Of a DNA stretch of 64,000 nt, positions 43,553-52,205 are shown in pieces (the stretch's first letter is position 1; each line of letters starts with the position of its first letter). The translations under genes were made by a program, and so were the position numbers. The notes beneath the pieces were generated by a model that was not told the origin of the DNA, did no database searches, and saw nothing but the letters and a program-made list of their open reading frames with translations. The DNA is taken from sequence record MF327006. One strand, written 5' to 3'. The stretch comes from Shigella phage Sf20.

Positions 43553-44070
43553 TGACAGAAACTAAACCTATGTTAAAATTTGTTGTTCCTGTAAAAAAAT
43601 TAGAGATAAACGGGAAACATATCAAGATCCCAAAAATGGGGATTAAGCAACATCGATTATTAAAAGATGTTCGTAGCTGTGATGAAACATTAAAGATTCT
43701 TCTTGATTCAATCTGTCCTGGGTTAAACGCTGCCGAGTCTGAATTGGTTATGCTTAACCTTTGTGCGTTTAATGGTAAGTGTCTGGAAGAAAAAGATGGT
43801 CTTAAGCTGTCTGATGTGTATATTTGTACAGAGACTGAATTTACTTTAAATGGTAAAGTCTTTAAATTTAAAAATCCAATGTATACTTCTGACCCCATTA
43901 TCGATGACGCTGATTTCTTGAGTCATCATTATCACGATCCTAGCGTAGACTTCCATGATTTCCCAGCTTTTATTATGGATTGGGCTACAGGATTAAGAAA
44001 AACTATTGCACTGGATACACCGGAAGGTACTATCTATGGTGGAATTAACATATTGGATCGCCTATCATGA
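43552..44070 (+). CDS. 28: baseplate hub distal subunit gp28, 172 aa
   Basis: Size and synteny. Confidence 0.75.
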   Translation: MTETKPMLKFVVPVKKLEINGKHIKIPKMGIKQHRLLKDVRSCDETLKILLDSICPGLNAAESELVMLNLCAFNGKCLEEKDGLKLSDVYICTETEFTLNGKVFKFKNPMYTSDPIIDDADFLSHHYHDPSVDFHDFPAFIMDWATGLRKTIALDTPEGTIYGGINILDRLS

Positions 44071-45800
44071 ATGACGCATTAACATCATTTCGCGGGATGC
44101 GCAAGGAAGCGGAAGAAAACCCGATTGATAAACTTAACAAATTAGATAAACTTGATTCTATTGATAATTTGCAAGCCGCTACCGAATTGGTGGCTGAGAC
44201 AGTGGAACAAAAATCTAATGAAGTTGTTGGTGCGGTAGAGGATAACACCGCAGCCAATGAATTGACGGCAGAAAATACACAATCTACCGCTGGCAATACC
44301 CAAAAAACTTATGAAGAATTGCAAAAACTCAATAATTTCTCTTCTCAGATGAATGAGAAATTACGTGGTTTTGGTGTTATGATGGAACGTAGATTTGGTG
44401 TTGTCAGTAAAATGGCTAGCGGTATTGGTGCGATTGAAGAAGCATTGAAAAAACCGGAACAACCGCAAACAATGCCATCACCTCAGCCAGTTTTGCCTAC
44501 TGTGCCGGAACAGCCTAATAATGACAACTATCAAGGTCTTCCAAAGAAAAAACCAGATGTTGAGGAACGGAAGAAAAAGAACGCCACAGATAAGCGTAAT
44601 GCAGATTCTATGGAAAATCTTCTTAAAGTTGTTCGTGGAGGATTTAAAGAAACCATAGGTATCTCTAATAAGGTCTTAGGGATGTTATTTAAGATCACTT
44701 TGACCGCTATGGCAGAAGCCGCAAAATGGGGTGCTATTTTGATGGGTATTGTTTTTGTCATTGATACCCTGATGGTTCATTTCAGATATTGGAGCGATTT
44801 ATTCGAGACAAAGTTCAGTGAATTTATGGATAAGGCCGGAGAATGGGCTGGTCCTATTAGCGATATTTTAACTACTGTTCGTCAGGTTCGAGATTATTGG
44901 TCTAAAGGCGAATATGGGGAGTTAATTAAATCTCTTGTTATGGGTATTGGTGATGCATTCTATAAAACCTTTATCCAACTTGATCGAATTATCACTACTG
45001 GTATTGCTAAAATTCTTCGCATGATCCCTGGTATGGGTGATTATGCCGATAAGTTAGAATATGGTGCTTTAAAATCTGCTGTCGCTCAAGGCTATACGCC
45101 AAATGAAAGAGAACTCGAATTAATGGATAAGATCGAGTCTGAACACGAAGAAGACAAATATGGAGAGCGCACAGGATGGACAGGAAAAGCCCGTGATATT
45201 GGCGAAGCTATTGGGGATTCTATTAAGGATAAAGTTAACGAAGGTCTTGTTAGTCTGGGCTGGAGAGATCAAAAGGATGTTGACGCAGAGAAACGACAAG
45301 AAGAATTAAAACGCGGGGAATATAAGTCTGTTTCTGCTGAACAACGATCTGCTAGTCGTAAACTTAGAATTAAAAGCGAGGGCGCGATCAATAATATTAA
45401 TGAAGTTATGGAGAATTTGAGCGGTGACTATGACAAAGAAAGAATGGGAGAGTTGAAAAAGGATATTGATGTTTACCGTGAGCAAGTTCAAGATCCTACA
45501 TTAGTTGAAAGTGATCGTTCTCAGTTAGAGCGTCTTATTGAAAAATTTGATGAGATGTATGCTGATAAAACTAAGGGTGTGGTTCCAACTAATCCTGTTC
45601 CTGCAACTGAAACGGAAACAGCAAAACAAGCGGAACGTACTGAACAAATGCAGAAACAAGCTGCAATCCAGCAACAAACGACAAATCAGACCTCAAACGT
45701 AAATAATACACAAATTGTAACAAACAATAGAACTATTAAACAGGGTGCACCAACAACTAGAATTGATGCTCCCGGTACAATTAATATGGGGAACTTTTAA
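44067..45800 (+). CDS. 29: baseplate hub / tail length determinator gp29, 577 aa
   Basis: Size and synteny; extended helical sequence. Confidence 0.8.
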   Translation: MNDALTSFRGMRKEAEENPIDKLNKLDKLDSIDNLQAATELVAETVEQKSNEVVGAVEDNTAANELTAENTQSTAGNTQKTYEELQKLNNFSSQMNEKLRGFGVMMERRFGVVSKMASGIGAIEEALKKPEQPQTMPSPQPVLPTVPEQPNNDNYQGLPKKKPDVEERKKKNATDKRNADSMENLLKVVRGGFKETIGISNKVLGMLFKITLTAMAEAAKWGAILMGIVFVIDTLMVHFRYWSDLFETKFSEFMDKAGEWAGPISDILTTVRQVRDYWSKGEYGELIKSLVMGIGDAFYKTFIQLDRIITTGIAKILRMIPGMGDYADKLEYGALKSAVAQGYTPNERELELMDKIESEHEEDKYGERTGWTGKARDIGEAIGDSIKDKVNEGLVSLGWRDQKDVDAEKRQEELKRGEYKSVSAEQRSASRKLRIKSEGAINNINEVMENLSGDYDKERMGELKKDIDVYREQVQDPTLVESDRSQLERLIEKFDEMYADKTKGVVPTNPVPATETETAKQAERTEQMQKQAAIQQQTTNQTSNVNNTQIVTNNRTIKQGAPTTRIDAPGTINMGNF

Positions 45801-46858: not shown

Positions 46859-47790
46859 TGTTTGATTTAAATGACTTTAACGAACAAGCCGCTAACCTTG
46901 ACTTTCAGCGATCTAACTTATTCAGCGTGGCATTTGCCACCACTCCAAGTAATAAGACACAAGCGATCCTAGAAAGTATGGGTGGTGCGGTATATGATAT
47001 TATACCAAATGCATTAAATGACTATTTCGGGATTACTCGTGGTGATTATACTGACGCATTAACAAATCTTGCTGTACAGGGTGTTAGGCGTGCTGTTGAT
47101 TCATCTGGTGTCAAAAAGTATCTTTTAGGTGCAATGTCATCCCGCGTAGTTCAATCTCTTCTGGGGCAATTTGATGTTGGTACGTATGCTCTTGACTGGT
47201 TCAATATGGCATATAAGACAAGCGGTCTTCTGGTGTATGCTGTTAAGGTTCCAGAAAACAGATTGAATTATGAAATGGACCGTAACCACAATGCGCCAAA
47301 CATTCGAATTACCGGACGTGATTTTGATCCGCTTGTATTGAGCTTTAGAATGGACTCTAGCGCATCAAACTATAGAGCAATGCAGGATTGGGTTAACTCA
47401 GTAGAAGACCCCGTTACAGGGCTTCGTGCGCTTCCTGTTGACGTTGAAGCAGATATTCAGGTCAACTTACATAACCGAATGGGAGTTCCTCACACGATCA
47501 TGATGTTTAATGGTTGTGTTCCTGTTGGTGTGAGTGCACCGGAATTAAACTATGAAAACAACAACGAAATCACAACATTCGATGTTACTTTCGCATATCG
47601 TTCTATGCAAACTGGTGCTGTAGGAGAGCAAGCCGCGCGAGAATGGATTGAGGATAAGGCAATAAACGCAATAACAAACACTTTCGGCAATAATTTACTT
47701 GATAGTGGGTTATCTGCTGCTGGTAATGCTTTATCGCGTCTAAATGGCGTTGGTGGGCGTGTGGTGAATACTGTCACTAACTGGTTCTGA
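46858..47790 (+). CDS. 54: baseplate tail tube initiator gp54, 310 aa
   Basis: Size and synteny. Confidence 0.8.
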   Translation: MFDLNDFNEQAANLDFQRSNLFSVAFATTPSNKTQAILESMGGAVYDIIPNALNDYFGITRGDYTDALTNLAVQGVRRAVDSSGVKKYLLGAMSSRVVQSLLGQFDVGTYALDWFNMAYKTSGLLVYAVKVPENRLNYEMDRNHNAPNIRITGRDFDPLVLSFRMDSSASNYRAMQDWVNSVEDPVTGLRALPVDVEADIQVNLHNRMGVPHTIMMFNGCVPVGVSAPELNYENNNEITTFDVTFAYRSMQTGAVGEQAAREWIEDKAINAITNTFGNNLLDSGLSAAGNALSRLNGVGGRVVNTVTNWF

Positions 47791-47798
47791 TAAGCGAA

Positions 47799-47830
47799 AG
47801 GCGGGGATTATCCCCCGCCTTTTTATTTTG
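47799..47830 (+). terminator. terminator hairpin between convergent genes 54 and lipoprotein gene
   Basis: Hairpin AGGCGGGG-attatc-CCCCGCCT followed by TTTTATTTTG. Confidence 0.65.
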
Positions 47831-48308
47831 CTAAATCATTGCAATATTTTAGTGCCTTAGTTTGAAATTCTGCGCTGTTAAGTTCTTCATAACGGTCATA
47901 ATCACCGTTTAATGCTGCCTTTCTTGCTTCTTGCTCTATCTGCATGTCAGACATGATAATACAGCGATCCCGTGCTTTCATCTTCTCAAGTTGTATAGAC
48001 TCTTCTTTCTGCTTGCGCAATTCTTCTTGACGCTTCTTTTCTTCTTGTGCTTTCTCTTCCCGCGCTTCTTTGATTGCATCCTTGAACATCTGCGTTTGTG
48101 GTGCTAAACCAACTTTAACGCGATCCACGTCTCGACGTTCCATTTTAGAAATAAAGCACGATTCGATCTGATCATCACTTGCATATGCTGCTTTACATTC
48201 ACGAAGCAAGAAAACCGGATCTGATTTAGCATTCATCATAGCTTCCATGTTGGCACAACCAGTAAGCATGAATGCAGCCGCAAGACCAATCAGTTTAATC
48301 ATTTTCAT
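47823..48308 (-). CDS. putative lipoprotein, 161 aa
   Basis: Signal peptide with lipobox (AAFMLTGC); Lys/Glu-rich coiled region; RBS GAGGTGA. Confidence 0.55.
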   Translation of the reverse strand: MKMIKLIGLAAAFMLTGCANMEAMMNAKSDPVFLLRECKAAYASDDQIESCFISKMERRDVDRVKVGLAPQTQMFKDAIKEAREEKAQEEKKRQEELRKQKEESIQLEKMKARDRCIIMSDMQIEQEARKAALNGDYDRYEELNSAEFQTKALKYCNDLAK

Positions 48309-49129
48309 TTAGTCACCTCACCGAAAATTGTAAATTGTCTACGATTCTCATCGCCGAAAGATTCTACTACGTCGTTTACCTTGACGCAAGTCCCGCGCGG
48401 TAAAATTACTTCACATTCGCAAGGGTTCCATGCAATTGACCCAACAACAAAACCTTTATGATCTTTTACGTCAATTACCCATGATACATTACAAGAATGT
48501 TGCATCTTTCCGGTCATTGATTCATATCGATTCTCACAATAAAGGCTAGTGCTGTTTGATAGCCATCCTCCAAAGATGATCGGTGTCATGCTGGTCGATA
48601 CAAAGTTTTTAAAGGTAAACTCCTTATCTTCAATGATGCGCTCTATTGTCTGAATGTCAAGATGTTGACCGCGATAAAGAGTACCGTTTAACTTTTCGGT
48701 TTTATCCATGACACAATCCATCAAATCAACAATCTCTGATATCTCATCGGTCATGTCTTCTTCCCCTAAGAGAGCACCATTTACCCATTCGTATTGCTCA
48801 GACACATAATCACATATTGCATTATATTCTGCTGGGGTTATGTTGTTATGTTTGTAATGTTTGAATACATTATCTCCAAAGTCTTCGGAGTGTACTTCAT
48901 ACATCACATTAATGATTTTCTTGACAAATCCATAATCTTGTGTCTCACGCTCAAGGAAGCGGATAACCTTCACATAATCATCAAAGTTAATCTGATCGCT
49001 GATCATCTCAGTGATCATGTAACCATTAATCCCCTCAATGTCATATGTTTCGATGTAATTATCCATACGTTCCATCATTGATTCGCGTGATTCTTCTGAA
49101 AGACGAAAATCCTGTAATTTCTTGAACAT
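48305..49129 (-). CDS. Alt-like mono-ADP-ribosyltransferase paralog, 274 aa
   Basis: R-S-E catalytic triad signature: LYRGQ, FVSTS, ECEVILP. Confidence 0.6.
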   Translation of the reverse strand: MFKKLQDFRLSEESRESMMERMDNYIETYDIEGINGYMITEMISDQINFDDYVKVIRFLERETQDYGFVKKIINVMYEVHSEDFGDNVFKHYKHNNITPAEYNAICDYVSEQYEWVNGALLGEEDMTDEISEIVDLMDCVMDKTEKLNGTLYRGQHLDIQTIERIIEDKEFTFKNFVSTSMTPIIFGGWLSNSTSLYCENRYESMTGKMQHSCNVSWVIDVKDHKGFVVGSIAWNPCECEVILPRGTCVKVNDVVESFGDENRRQFTIFGEVTK

Positions 49130-49150
49130 TTTAAGCCTCCCATATAACAG

Positions 49151-49190
49151 AAAACGGGGCTAGTATAAAACTAGTCCCCGTTTGAGTCAA
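49151..49190 (-). terminator. rho-independent terminator downstream of alt (minus strand)
   Basis: Minus-strand stem-loop (CGGGGACTAG..CTAGCCCCG) followed by TTTTCTGTT. Confidence 0.55.
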
Positions 49191-49207
49191 CCATTATTTC
49201 TTAAAAA

Positions 49208-51333
49208 TTACATTTTAAATTTATCTGGCATTGCGTCTACAGATACCAGGTCAGCGATAAGCTGACGTAGAGTTGCCTTATCTGCTTTCTTACGTTCGGT
49301 TTTAGCTTCGCTAATGAAGCTGGAGAAAGACAGGTCAGAAGCAGGTTTAACAACACCTTCACGGATGAATGCATCACCGTCCGCGATCATCTCGCCAGAT
49401 TCTTGTAATGCTGCCAGTTCATTTTTGTTCATAATATGTGCCTCAATGTAATAAGTTTCTTGTGAATCCGTCGATGCCGTAGCACGAGTTACCGTATCAA
49501 AGGATAACACAACACCGCGAGGAAGTAAAATCTCGCATTCTTTGTAAGCAAATGCTTTGTTACCTACTGGCAAGACAGGGATGTTTTCCGCGCCAGCAAT
49601 GGAGAAAGCAACATTAGCGCCACCTTCACCGCGAGAGCCAGCCATAGAATCAACACCAGCAACGGCACTAGCCACGTTTGCATTCCAGCCGCCAAAAATT
49701 CACCGCGAGAGCCAGCCATAGAATCAACACCAGCAACGGCACTAGCCACGTTTGCATTCCAGCCGCCAAAAATGTTAGGTGCAAGGGAAGTGCTCACATA
49801 GTTTTTAAAGTAAAACGCTTTTTGCTTACGTGCAGTTTCCCACATTTGCGACCGGAAGTCCATACCACGATACAGAATAGTACCCGGATCAAGTTTAACA
49901 CCATAGTTAGAGAAGGCATTATCCAGTGCATCGCACATCTTGACCAATTCTTCTGGATCTGCGATTCCCTCAAACTCTTCCAGCTTACGATCAGTTAGGA
50001 AGTTGTTCATATTGATGTATGCTGCATCGGCATATTCGCTCAACACAAAACCTTCCGCGCCTGGCAGATCAAGATCAATATCTGCCATCATTTCACCCAT
50101 GTTGCTAGCAATTGCTTCAAACATACCGGAGGCAACATTACGTAGGGCATCGGTTTTAATCTGGGTGATATGACTACGCAGCATTTCAGCTTTTACATCT
50201 GCTGGCATAGACTGGTCTACTCGATCCATTGCCAAGGCGGTGATCTTGTTTTCGAATACTTCCTCGCTCATGATTTCTTTTAAGCGTTTGACCGAGGCTG
50301 CGATAACTTCCGCAGACAATGGGTCATATTGATCCTGAACTTTTACCAGTTCGCTTACTGCGTATTTTGCATCGGCTTCGCTTTCAAAAATAGTACGCAT
50401 GAAACCATAGCGAGTGATAATATCACTTGTCCAGTCATTCAGAGAACGGGCGGTTGAACGTTCTAAGGCTTGACGGTCAATCAGAGTATTAAACTGTTTC
50501 TTAGGTTCTGCTTCGGTGATATCTTCTTCCGGTTTAAGATTAATTTTTTCTGGATGATTCACATAGTCGCTGTTATAGGTCGCTTGAGTTTTCAGCATTT
50601 CTTCTTTAGTCAAACGAGATTTAGCCGCTACGCGTTGTTCTGCTTCCGCGTTTCGTTCTTCTTCTGACACAAGACTAGCCGCATACGCCTCATCTTTAGT
50701 CAGAGATTCACCAGTAGCCTTAGATACCCAGCGATCACCTAAATCACTTTCTACTTTAGTGAACAAGGATTCATCAAGTTTAATCCCTTTAATCTTATCA
50801 ATCGCCATCCCGCGACGCTTGACAACAACTAAAGCGATCTTTTTGCTGGTCATTACTTCCTGCTGGAATACTTCAAACTTCGGTGTACGACGCACCAAAC
50901 GCTCTATAACGCGCTTAACCAGTTCGGTCTTACCTTTCATGCGGGATACGTTAAAACGGAACATAACAGCGTCTAATTGAGCTTTACGGGCTGTTTCCAT
51001 AACCACATCAAAAGCACTTGCCATAACTGCAATCGGGTTATCGCCTAGACCATTTTTAAGCTGTATAATACGACCGCTTTTGTTCATTTCGCACAGTACA
51101 ACATGTGCGGTCTTGTCACCCATACGAATGATTTTAGGTGTTTTGTTGGTGAAGTTGCAAAGACGGACAATCACATCTTTATCGCGTGTCTGTACTGCAA
51201 AAAGCTGTTTAGGATTCTGCTTAGGCTTTAAGCACTGTACAGGAGCAATACTGCCAAAGTTTTCTTCCTCTTCCGTCAACAGCCATTTCTCGAAAGATTC
51301 AATCATTAGATCGTCGATTTCTAAGTTAAACAT
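49208..51333 (-). pseudogene. alt: alt (ADP-ribosyltransferase) disrupted by 74-bp tandem duplication frameshift
   Basis: 589-aa ORF (49564-51333) carries LYRG and YVSTS; 155-aa ORF (49208-49675) carries the ExE motif KECEIL; both encode ASAVAGVDSMAGSRGE from the duplicated segment; removing one copy gives a single ORF of about 683 aa (T4 Alt is about 682 aa). Confidence 0.75.
49625..49772. repeat. perfect tandem direct duplication, 2 x 74 bp
   Basis: 49625-49698 is identical to 49699-49772 (TTCACCGCGAGAGCCAGCCATAGAATCAACACCAGCAACGGCACTAGCCACGTTTGCATTCCAGCCGCCAAAAA). Confidence 0.9.
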
Positions 51334-51375
51334 TTTATATCCTCTAGTTGATAACCTATAAACCTATATTTATGA

Positions 51376-51400
51376 AAACGGGGCTTAACGCCCCCTTTTT
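51376..51400 (-). terminator. terminator-like hairpin GGGGC-ttaac-GCCCC between small gene and alt
   Basis: Hairpin at 51380-51394 flanked by A-run and T-run; same hairpin sequence recurs at 55644. Confidence 0.5.
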
Positions 51401-51401
51401 A

Positions 51402-51614
51402 TTATAATGCACCATCAAGCAATTGCTCTAAGGTGTATCCTGAATAGTCTTTTTCAATCAGGATATATTTTCCTACTCGTTTAATACAACCACGCATTTC
51501 AACGTATTCTGCGTAGTTGATGGTACGAGTTGTTCCATCTTCCAGTAATGCAGTACCGATTTCGTTAATGCGGTCATAAGTTACGTCGGTAATGATGATT
51601 TCGATGTTAGCCAT
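51402..51614 (-). CDS. hypothetical protein, 70 aa (starts MANIE)
   Basis: ATG 51614 with RBS AAGGAG; ORF-track GTG extension would overlap the promoter cassette. Confidence 0.5.
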   Translation of the reverse strand: MANIEIIITDVTYDRINEIGTALLEDGTTRTINYAEYVEMRGCIKRVGKYILIEKDYSGYTLEQLLDGAL

Positions 51615-51650
51615 TTGATACTCCTTAGTAGTTCGTTTCGGTATGTGTGC

Positions 51651-51679
51651 ATTATAGGGGATCACCGATCCCCTGTCAA
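51651..51679 (-). promoter_or_regulatory. PeSL-like cassette promoter 1: TTGACA - GGGGATCGGTGATCCCC - TATAAT
   Basis: Plus attata 51651-56, 17-nt hairpin spacer, tgtcaa 51674-79. Confidence 0.6.
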
Positions 51680-51686
51680 CAACTTT

Positions 51687-52205
51687 TTAGTTATTTTTTA
51701 ATTGTTCATCTTGCAATAATGCAATCACATGCTGGCGATGTTCTTCCGATTGAGGTACACCGAAAAAGTTTGTTTTGTAGAAATACTCTAATCGGTCTTC
51801 TCGTGTGCTCTCTTCCATCATGATCGCGGGTAGTCCGAGATTTCGGAAACGTCGCTTTTCTGCTGGCGTAAAATCACTGTAATACAACATAGAATCATCA
51901 TTACAAGCAATGCTAAACTCATCCTTCATAAAGGAGAATATTGCGTTTAAACGCTGTTTACCGTCCACGATTTCGATCTCATAGCGAGAGCCATCATCAA
52001 TCTTAGCCATTGCGATAGCACCAACCGGAAAATCATTAATCAGGTTTTCAATAAACATACGTTTGTTTTCGGTGTCCCATACTAAAGGACGCTGATAATC
52101 TGGGTTCATGTTGATATAGCCATCTTCTAACCATGCTTCGTAAACAGAGATAACAAAGTTTTTAGTATTGGTATAGTAGCGGCGTTTAGGCGTTAAACGG
52201 TTCAT
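51687..52205 (-). CDS. DUF262 / ParB-like nuclease-domain protein, 172 aa
   Basis: Motifs DYQRPLVW and DGKQRL; ATG 52205 one nt after upstream stop, RBS AGGAG. Confidence 0.55.
   Translation of the reverse strand: MNRLTPKRRYYTNTKNFVISVYEAWLEDGYINMNPDYQRPLVWDTENKRMFIENLINDFPVGAIAMAKIDDGSRYEIEIVDGKQRLNAIFSFMKDEFSIACNDDSMLYYSDFTPAEKRRFRNLGLPAIMMEESTREDRLEYFYKTNFFGVPQSEEHRQHVIALLQDEQLKNN

Follow-up and report, generated by a model that had tools for sequence, protein, structure and literature searches.

ART2 is a 274 aa ADP-ribosyltransferase encoded on the minus strand of Shigella phage Sf20, at 48305..49129 of the window (the whole 64,000 nt stretch of record MF327006 that was analyzed), and is a shortened paralog of the product of the neighboring alt gene; LPP, whose gene follows at once on the same strand (47823..48308), is a 161 aa lipoprotein precursor and the ortholog of RB49p182. 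Sf20 is a Krischvirus, of the RB49 type. The two genes are probably an early operon, conserved among Krischvirus phages, that joins a functional cytoplasmic ART2 to an LPP acting at the envelope; we give this reading a probability of about 0.7. The ART2 stop and LPP start codons share the ATGA at 48305..48308 (minus strand), an overlapping stop/start that had been described in the first-pass annotation, and an overlap or a gap of no more than 1 nt is kept at this junction in every relative examined; a GAGGTG Shine-Dalgarno lies inside ART2 just upstream of the LPP start, and the overlap is predicted to couple translation of the two genes. Plus-strand ORFs at 47931-48107 and 48794-49081 were dismissed as unsupported, the pattern of synonymous changes fitting the minus-strand frames, and a search of 47000-52000 against Rfam found no RNA family.

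The ART2 protein is 100% identical to RB49p183 (RB49ORF183c; NP_891754), which likewise sits between alt and RB49p182 and is annotated as 'ADP-ribosyltransferase; similar to C-terminal part of T4 Alt protein'. As RB49p183 has been annotated since 2003 and was given as a paralogous duplication of alt by Nolan et al. in 2006 (PMC1524935), the finding is not new; the ART2 and lipoprotein pair is already part of the published RB49 annotation and adds nothing to the catalogue. In the literature searched, data on expression, activity or the proteome were not found for ART2 or LPP of any Krischvirus, nor were Krischvirus virion proteomics or functional studies of RB49p182 and RB49p183.

By profile, motifs and fold, ART2 is an ADP-ribosyltransferase of the R-S-E clade. 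The Pfam family PF03496 (ADPrib_exo_Tox) scores 59.3 bits over residues 82-266 (threshold 23.4 bits; E 4.3e-16; profile positions 2-187 of 196), and PHROG 15144, 'ADP-ribosyltransferase', matches the full-length protein (E 2.6e-198). The first-pass annotation had read a 274 aa transferase with an intact R-S-E triad from this minus-strand frame, and the alignments agree: the codons of the catalytic Arg153 (LYRGQ within GTLYRGQ; 48671..48673), of the STS motif Ser178-Thr179-Ser180 (NFVSTSM; 48590..48598) and of the ExE of the ARTT loop, Glu238-Cys-Glu240 (CECEVILPRG; 48410..48418), all on the minus strand, follow in the right order, and the residues fall in register with T4 Alt, RB49 Alt and solved ADP-ribosyltransferases, as well as with Tre1, SpvB, BECa and Lmo0066. 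Arg153, Ser178 and Thr179 are invariant in an alignment of 38 sequences (A6) and Ser180 is nearly so; Glu238 and Glu240 are invariant both there and in alignments A1, A5 and A7. The AF2 model (pLDDT 86.8, pTM 0.85) is predicted to have the ART fold, a split beta-sandwich preceded by helices, with an extra helical N-terminal region of ~95 residues. Foldseek analysis of this model against the PDB returned 126 matches at E <= 0.001; the best 50 of the 126 are all ART toxins, among them Vis, C3, CDTa, Certhrax and iota Ia (E ~1e-10, probability 1.0), and a profile search against PDB sequences gave E 3.6e-9. ART2 has no signal peptide; it would act in the cytoplasm as a functional, NAD-dependent mono-ADP-ribosyltransferase (R-S-ExE clade), with arginine specificity predicted from the ExE motif.

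The ART2 and LPP genes are present in 58/58 Krischvirus genomes of the phage collection, and the ART2 ORF is full length in each of them with 97-100% protein identity. Compared with RB49 the gene carries 13 synonymous and 0 non-synonymous differences; summed over nine genomes there are 472 synonymous and 54 non-synonymous differences (pN/pS ~0.03). ART2 is a working gene under purifying selection. BLASTP places the protein nearer to T4 Alt (E 1e-23) than to the Alt of RB49 itself (E 1e-16), for which reason a recent duplication of RB49's own alt was rejected; ART2 would go back to an old duplication that copied the catalytic half of alt.

Promoter and terminators at this locus are read from consensus and conservation. 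A scan predicts a sigma-70-type early promoter for the ART2-LPP operon at 49162..49190 on the minus strand, (G)TTGACT - 17 nt - TATACT; the GEC-3S record carries a promoter annotation at this site, which fits the RB49 early-promoter consensus of GTTGAC with an A-rich upstream region (PMC1524935). Its spacer and -10 element overlap the predicted hairpin terminator of alt (49152..49183, minus strand), which folds as RNA at -18.9 to -20.6 kcal/mol (z = -2.7) and has a 12-pair stem kept in five lineages, with compensatory changes at two pairs; both the promoter hexamers and the hairpin persist in relatives with an ART2 identity of only 27-63%. The ART2 Shine-Dalgarno, GGGAGG, lies at 49136..49141 (minus strand), and at the other end of the pair a GC-rich hairpin between the convergent LPP gene and gene 54 (47796..47823) was found by scan and is predicted to terminate the operon; GEC-3S annotates it as a terminator on both strands. 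Upstream, alt is preceded by a terminator and CATAAATA; no late promoter TATAAATA was found near ART2. The conserved early promoter and the absent late promoter suggest early synthesis of ART2 in the infected cell, as for T4 ModA and ModB, rather than carriage in the capsid as for Alt. Transcripts of alt would stop at the hairpin and ART2 would be transcribed separately, with the promoter nested in that hairpin driving both ART2 and the coupled LPP gene; host RNA polymerase would then make ART2 in the first minutes of infection, as it does T4 ModA and ModB, and ART2 would add a second wave of ADP-ribosylation on host proteins after that of injected Alt. Read-through of the late alt transcript could also give late expression of ART2.

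The N-terminus of LPP, MKMIKLIGLAAAFMLTGC, combines a basic n-region and a hydrophobic core with the lipobox L-T-G-C (LTG-C18), the LTGC of the first-pass annotation; lipoproteins were recognized here by [LVI][ASTVI][GAS]C within ~20-25 residues of the N-terminus together with a basic n- and a hydrophobic h-region, all of which LPP has. The signal peptide and lipobox, MKMIKLIGLAAAFM-LTGC, are encoded at 48255..48308 (minus strand), with Cys18 the predicted lipidated residue and Ala at +2. PHROG 16112 matches LPP with E 9e-110, and the protein is already named a lipoprotein in the W115 record and in UniRef. The lipobox Cys is invariant throughout the family, and the lipobox and four cysteines of the mature part are invariant in 16 diverse members; the AF2 model (pLDDT 87.8) is all helical, and LPP is predicted to fold as a helical, disulfide-stabilized periplasmic protein with a helix of ~60 residues. 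LPP is predicted to reach the outer membrane after export and lipidation at Cys18: it has no Asp at +2, and under the +2 rule of E. coli the Ala found there implies outer-membrane sorting.

LPP is a tiny orphan family strictly linked to ART2. Among 1.84 billion representative proteins, a profile search returned only 11 matches, all from the same narrow family apart from one weak match to a 1252 aa protein, and none a named relative; wherever the genomic context of a member was read, its gene follows directly after ART2 and converges with gene 54. Foldseek analysis of the LPP model against BFVD gave only members of its own family, and no structural relative was found in the PDB or BFVD beyond generic helical matches. 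Searches of Pfam, NCBIfam and PADLOC gave signal-peptide-level or coiled-coil noise, and a sequence search of the PDB gave low-complexity charged helices such as diaphanous. A role for LPP as a spanin, either an Rz1-type o-spanin or a unimolecular one, was rejected: its C-terminus is a charged helix (...KYCNDLAK) without a transmembrane segment, the upstream gene is the transferase, and RB49 encodes a spanin pair of its own, pseT.2/pseT.3, at another place.

The mature part of LPP is a polymorphic cassette (47840..48252, minus strand; BLASTN break points at ~48253-48276 and ~47839), with alleles that share 23-43% identity, against ~98% (BLASTN) for the flanking sequences of the phages that carry them; these alleles swap while the neighboring ART2 stays 100% identical. 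No co-variation of the LPP alleles was found with ART2, with genes 54, 48 and 29, or with the adhesin gp38 and the fibre gp37; alleles A, B and C occur with both gp38 types and are scattered over the gp37 variants. The tracking of the receptor-binding protein that would be expected of a Cor/Llp-type protein was therefore not seen in this indirect test. LPP would act at the envelope independently of ART2, and our guess is that it shields infected cells from superinfecting phages or from damage to the envelope. Homologs of T4 Sp and Imm were not detected in the RB49-type genome, which is a weak negative because both proteins are small and fast-evolving; their absence would possibly leave a vacancy for an exclusion function. 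A fuller version of this idea, in which LPP is a diversifying outer-membrane envelope factor exchanged as a cassette and serving exclusion or protection, and ART2 is an early, ModA-like third ADP-ribosyltransferase with host targets of its own, is tentative and in our view has the odds against it.

The first-pass annotation proposed that the paralog could compensate for a disrupted alt, and its reading that the neighboring alt is out of frame is correct: alt (49208..51333, minus strand; ORFs and PHROG) is split here into ORFs of 589 aa and 155 aa by a perfect 74-nt tandem duplication (49625..49772; copies 49625-49698 and 49699-49772) that shifts the frame between the STS and ExE motifs. Removal of one copy restores a 683 aa Alt that is identical to RB49 Alt at 681/683 positions. 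In RB49 and ELT3 the gene is unbroken (2052 nt), and the duplication, absent from all 58 related records, is private to this genome and may be an assembly artefact. As an account of its origin the proposal fails, since intact alt and ART2 occur together in 58/58 relatives and ART2 was therefore not selected as a replacement for alt. That ART2 nevertheless serves as a functional backup in this one genome is improbable: the two proteins have a catalytic domain family in common, the 5' ORF of alt stops here ahead of its ExE motif, and T4 Alt is reported to be non-essential (PMC9026906); however, ART2 accompanies an intact alt in every related genome, is only 31-37% identical to the catalytic region of Alt with a different ARTT-loop sequence, and, if early and not injected, could not act at the time of DNA entry, and the lesion it would back up is itself possibly artefactual. 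The view of ART2 as a decaying, functionless remnant of an alt duplication, comparable to T4 alt.-1/alt.-2, deserves almost no credence; T4 does have non-functional remnants at the same position (by annotation and stop codons) and split second copies of alt occur in other T-even contigs, but the selection data effectively refute a pseudogene here, with the ORF full length in 58/58 genomes, pN/pS ~0.03, catalytic residues invariant among homologs down to 27% identity, a confidently predicted ART fold, and a conserved promoter and Shine-Dalgarno of its own.

Packaging of ART2 in the capsid and injection like Alt, by way of an N-terminal targeting sequence that ends in L-S-E (residues 10-12) and is trimmed by gp21, is unlikely, if somewhat less so than the backup role. 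ART2 was confirmed to be shorter than Alt, matching only Alt positions ~330-602, and to lack the Alt N-terminal domain as the first-pass annotation had said; the absence of that region is no proof in itself against packaging, as a targeting sequence of 10 residues suffices in T4, where gp21 cuts behind L/I-X-E and Alt itself is shortened by just 7 residues at the N-terminus (PMC9026906). At its N-terminus, MFKKLQDFRLSE/E, ART2 has an L-x-E that fits the gp21 motif, most of the diverged homologs have L/I-x-E within their first 5-18 residues as read from the alignment, and the gene adjoins alt and structural genes. However, L-x-E carries little information in a Glu-rich region and is missing from homolog P0047, the ART2 N-terminus aligns with the interior of Alt (~residue 330) rather than with its propeptide, and the gene has a conserved sigma-70 promoter of its own inside the alt terminator and no late promoter, a better argument against packaging than the missing N-terminal region. 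A functional link between ART2 and LPP, for example as toxin and cognate inhibitor or partner with synteny and coupling reflecting physical interaction, is very unlikely; it would explain why LPP lies immediately 3' of ART2 in every member examined, with codons that overlap or abut, over ART2 identities of 27-100%. Tight packing is nonetheless common among unrelated early genes in T4-type genomes; the signal peptide and four conserved cysteines suit LPP to the oxidizing periplasm, while ART2 needs cytoplasmic NAD and has no signal peptide, and LPP alleles only 23-43% identical beside a 100% identical ART2 mean that the two do not co-evolve. The early operon of a cytoplasmic ART2 and an envelope-acting LPP is retained as the preferred reading.

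Host takeover has a classic model in the three ADP-ribosyltransferases of T4, of which ModB has reportedly been shown of late to attach RNA chains to host proteins. RB49-type phages are cytosine-DNA relatives of T4, and ART2, as a distinct, strongly conserved and probably early enzyme of the Alt type, lends itself naturally to a comparison of targets and timing. LPP is perhaps the more interesting half of the pair, being an orphan family tied to ART2 with alleles swapped like those of a surface antigen, a pattern that usually marks an interface of phage-phage or phage-host conflict; if LPP does exclude superinfecting phages, this would matter for therapeutic cocktails that contain Krischvirus phages.

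Known superinfection-exclusion proteins of phages include the lipoproteins T5 Llp, Cor of phi80/N15/T1 (PHROG 1119), Ltp of Streptococcus phage TP-J34 and the periplasmic T4 Sp. LPP resembles these in being small, phage-encoded, exported and lipidated by prediction, early as judged by its predicted promoter, and probably anchored where incoming phages act; it differs in being about twice as long and in its predicted all-helical fold with two probable disulfides. The PHROG 1119 profile reaches LPP only at E 0.0074 over residues 1-45, mainly the signal peptide, with 0 significant stretches.

The R-S-E toxins C3, Vis, iota-Ia, CDTa, VIP2, SpvB and Tre1 (PF03496) have their fold and catalytic triad in common with ART2 (Foldseek E ~1e-10, target-normalized TM ~0.6), with an identity of only 15-20%; unlike these bacterial proteins, ART2 is phage-derived and has neither a secretion/translocation module nor a cognate immunity gene. 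T4 Alt (gpAlt; 682 aa; PHROG 802; PF26846 and PF03496) has a catalytic domain homologous to ART2, with 31% identity over 181 residues (E 1e-23) and R, STS and ExE in register; the PHROG 802 profile matches ART2 residues 8-268 at positions 330-602 of 674 (E 3.2e-45). ART2 lacks the ~330 N-terminal residues of Alt, including the Pfam PF26846 (Tevenvirinae_ADPRT) domain, which is recorded for Alt homologs and for none of the ART2-type proteins, as well as the C-terminal tail of ~80 residues (...MPxKF..) that is processed by gp21 in Alt and is absent in alignments A1 and A5. Among the many host proteins that T4 Alt reportedly ADP-ribosylates is the RNA polymerase alpha subunit, at Arg265 (PMC3014915); Alt is carried in the virion, while ART2, with an early-type promoter and no late one, probably stays outside it. 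In size class and predicted mode of expression ART2 is closer to T4 ModA and ModB, which are small (~200 aa), stand-alone early transferases of the R-S-E type. It belongs, however, to the Alt/VIP2 branch and has the extra helical N-terminal region that ModA and ModB lack; identity to them in a joint alignment is 13-19%, with no specific sequence relationship detected, and no Mod-family link was found among the PHROG or Pfam matches of ART2. RB49 has a single Mod homolog, RB49p014, encoded by a gene separate from ART2, and so holds Alt, ART2 and one Mod where T4 holds Alt, ModA and ModB; since there is only one Mod homolog, ART2 may fill the role of the third ADP-ribosyltransferase of RB49.

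ART2 is a 274 aa Alt-like protein encoded on the minus strand (48305..49129) and, by its motifs, profile matches and predicted fold, is a bona fide R-S-ExE ADP-ribosyltransferase. It carries LYRGQ (R153), FVSTS (S178-T-S180) and CECEVILP (E238, E240); R153, S178, T179, E238 and E240 are invariant among 38 homologs. Alignments including ModA and ModB place the Arg, STS and ExE elements in register with RB49 Alt and T4 Alt, and the motifs also align with the solved toxins Tre1, SpvB, BECa and Lmo0066; the intact R-S-E triad described in the first-pass annotation therefore stands. ART2 matches Pfam PF03496 at E 4.3e-16, well over threshold, and PHROG 15144 ('ADP-ribosyltransferase') at E 2.6e-198, while residues 8-268 fall on positions 330-602 of the 674-position Alt profile PHROG 802 ('Alt-like'; E 3.2e-45). 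The AlphaFold2 model (pLDDT 86.8, pTM 0.85) retrieves Vis, C3, CDTa, Certhrax and iota-Ia through Foldseek at E about 1e-10 and probability 1.0.

The gene directly downstream, also on the minus strand (47823..48308), encodes LPP, a 161 aa lipoprotein precursor; the ART2 stop and LPP start overlap as ATGA at 48305-48308 (minus strand), with a GAGGTG Shine-Dalgarno sequence directly 5'. Both ORFs and the overlap are thus as first reported; that observation is confirmed and its overall interpretation essentially supported. The pair is real, yet previously annotated and discussed in the literature. The 3.8-kb region shares 98-99% nucleotide identity with 58 phage genomes, all from Krischvirus, the RB49-like, T4-type coliphages. 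The RB49 counterparts are RB49p183 for ART2 (100% protein identity), annotated as 'ADP-ribosyltransferase; similar to C-terminal part of T4 Alt protein', and RB49p182 for LPP (99.4%), annotated as hypothetical. RB49ORF183c was classed together with T4 alt.-1/alt.-2 among alt paralogous duplications by Nolan et al. 2006 (PMC1524935), and the lipoprotein label is present in the W115 record and UniRef; the pair is therefore already known.

The full-length alt gene upstream of ART2 (49208-51333, minus strand) is indeed disrupted in the window, as the first-pass annotation had suspected. A perfect 74-nt tandem duplication (49625-49698 and 49699-49772), between the STS and ExE motifs, breaks its frame and splits it into ORFs of 589 and 155 aa; with one repeat copy removed, alt encodes a 683 aa Alt identical to that of RB49 at 681 residues. 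Whether a genuine loss-of-function mutation or an artefact of assembly or editing, the duplication occurs in none of the 58 related genomes. The proposal that ART2 compensates for the disrupted alt is considered improbable, because all 58 relatives carry an intact alt beside ART2, without the duplication; from this genome comparison ART2 is a standing component of the genus, not a response to alt loss.

Strong purifying selection on ART2 is added here to what was known. The gene has 13 synonymous and no non-synonymous differences from its RB49 counterpart, a pN/pS of about 0.03 (summed over nine genomes) and 97-100% protein identity across the 58 genomes; judged by its substitutions, it is a functional gene. 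T4 Alt is nearer to ART2 (E 1e-23) than is RB49's own Alt (E 1e-16), which argues that ART2 is an ancient alt paralog and not a recent copy. A T-even-like metagenomic contig (L025, 1086-5599) holds, 3' of alt, a further alt copy in two pieces, a 273 aa N-terminal-domain gene and a 415 aa ADP-ribosyltransferase gene, and then a DUF5498 (alt.-3-like) gene. In T4, a duplication of this sort survives as the dead N-terminal remnants alt.-1/alt.-2; duplication 3' of alt is recurrent, and alt copies there have been repeatedly gained and lost.

ART2 is shorter than Alt and without its N-terminal region, as had been claimed: PF26846, the N-terminal domain of Alt homologs, is never recorded for ART2-type proteins, and the PHROG 802 match begins only at position 330. 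The Alt C-terminal tail is likewise absent from ART2 in alignments. Packaging of ART2 in the capsid would nevertheless keep a small likelihood, because in T4 a 10-residue targeting sequence is enough for packaging and gp21 cuts after L/I-X-E (PMC9026906), and the ART2 N-terminus, MFKKLQDFRLSE/E, resembles such a gp21 site; this reading is considered improbable.

LPP begins with a textbook lipoprotein signal peptide, MKMIKLIGLAAAFMLTGC, with the lipobox LTGC, so the coupled lipoprotein gene is also present as described; from Ala at +2, sorting to the outer membrane is predicted. With a simple lipobox pattern, LPP is the sole matching ORF in the 64-kb window, and scanning ~160 kb of RB49-type sequence yielded just one more match, in the spanin locus. 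AlphaFold2 predicts an entirely helical protein (pLDDT 87.8) in which a single helix runs over residues 72-133; Glu, Arg and Lys are abundant in this central stretch of about 60 residues. Searches by structure and family found no relatives beyond its own small family, and when 1.84 billion representative proteins were searched exhaustively with a profile, only 11 matches emerged, ten of them proteins of 103-174 aa (one a 103 aa fragment) and the eleventh a weak, probably spurious match to a 1252 aa protein. Members with readable context all lie directly 3' of an ART2-type gene, with an overlap or a gap of ≤1 nt, and are all convergent with gene 54. In a diverse set of 16 members (the window, relatives' proteins P0017, P0038-P0040, P0162 and P0164-P0169, and loci L005, L006, L008 and L009), the lipobox Cys and exactly four further cysteines are kept in 16/16, and in 15/16 the spacing between the last two is exactly 40 residues; a C-terminal Lys, reminiscent of Braun's lipoprotein, is present in most members.

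Krischvirus genomes with 97-100% identical ART2 carry mature LPP in at least three allelic types. Allele A (this window and RB49) shares 23% mature-part identity with allele B (Whisky, JK32) and 27% with allele C (011D4, E26, AV108), and B and C share 43%; the signal peptide is conserved between alleles. The mature part (window 47840-48252, minus strand) behaves like a swappable cassette in the comparison with loci L005-L009, alleles of 23-43% identity lying between flanks that are about 98% identical; in 011D4 and E26 the swapped segment is a clean ~430 bp, from ~48270 in the signal-peptide codons to ~47840 at the terminator, with flanks 98% identical. Allele type shows no co-variation with ART2, genes 54/48/29, the gp38 adhesin or the gp37 fibre. 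A specific ART2-LPP interaction is therefore disfavoured, as is a simple Llp/Cor-type blocker that would be matched to the receptor of the phage itself. By tblastn, T4 Sp (spackle) and Imm have no detectable homolog in an RB49-type genome (L019, L028 and L029, together with the window). As a working guess, LPP may be an early, outer-membrane-anchored periplasmic factor for superinfection exclusion or envelope protection, perhaps diversifying under phage-phage or phage-host conflict. The analysis adds a view of LPP as a strictly syntenic, cassette-polymorphic orphan family coupled to ART2.

Krischvirus phages also differ in a mosaic fashion in the baseplate-hub block adjoining LPP. In Whisky (L005, 7017-8695), the region of gene 29 (tape measure / hub) is annotated as two ORFs and is only ~75% identical to, or unalignable with, window 44067-45800; for genes 54 and 48, identity between Whisky and the window is about 78%.

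The 78 nt alt-ART2 spacer holds GGTTGACT - 17 nt - TATACT at 49190..49162 (minus strand), a predicted promoter that fits the RB49 early-promoter consensus of GTTGAC and an A-rich upstream segment (PMC1524935); the identical site is annotated as a promoter by the authors of the GEC-3S record. A hairpin at 49152-49183 (-19 to -21 kcal/mol, z = -2.7) encloses it and looks like the alt terminator. When window 49152-49190 (minus strand) is compared with the intergenic regions of relatives (L010, L013, L014, L016 and L022/L023), the promoter takes the form TTGACA/T - 17 nt - TATACT; both hexamers and the hairpin are kept in metagenomic relatives with ART2 only 27-63% identical, and a consensus fold built from five of the intergenic regions has compensatory changes at two stem pairs. 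No late-promoter box (TATAAATA) occurs near ART2. Upstream of alt on the minus strand are a GC-rich terminator hairpin (51380-51394) and CATAAATA (51340-51347), a 7/8 match to the T4 late-promoter box; from these elements we infer that alt would be a late, packaged function. A perfect TTGACA - 17 nt - TATAAT at 51679-51651 is predicted to drive a small ORF upstream of alt, not alt.

ART2 and LPP would thus form an early operon whose transcription relies on the unmodified host polymerase. The conserved promoter-in-terminator architecture, also added here, implies early, Mod-like expression of ART2, the predicted mode being that of T4 ModA and ModB. RB49p014, nearer to ModB, is the only Mod homolog of RB49, where T4 carries both ModA and ModB. 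That ART2 fills a ModA-like role is speculation; the RB49 set consists of Alt, ART2 and Mod and that of T4 of Alt, ModA and ModB.
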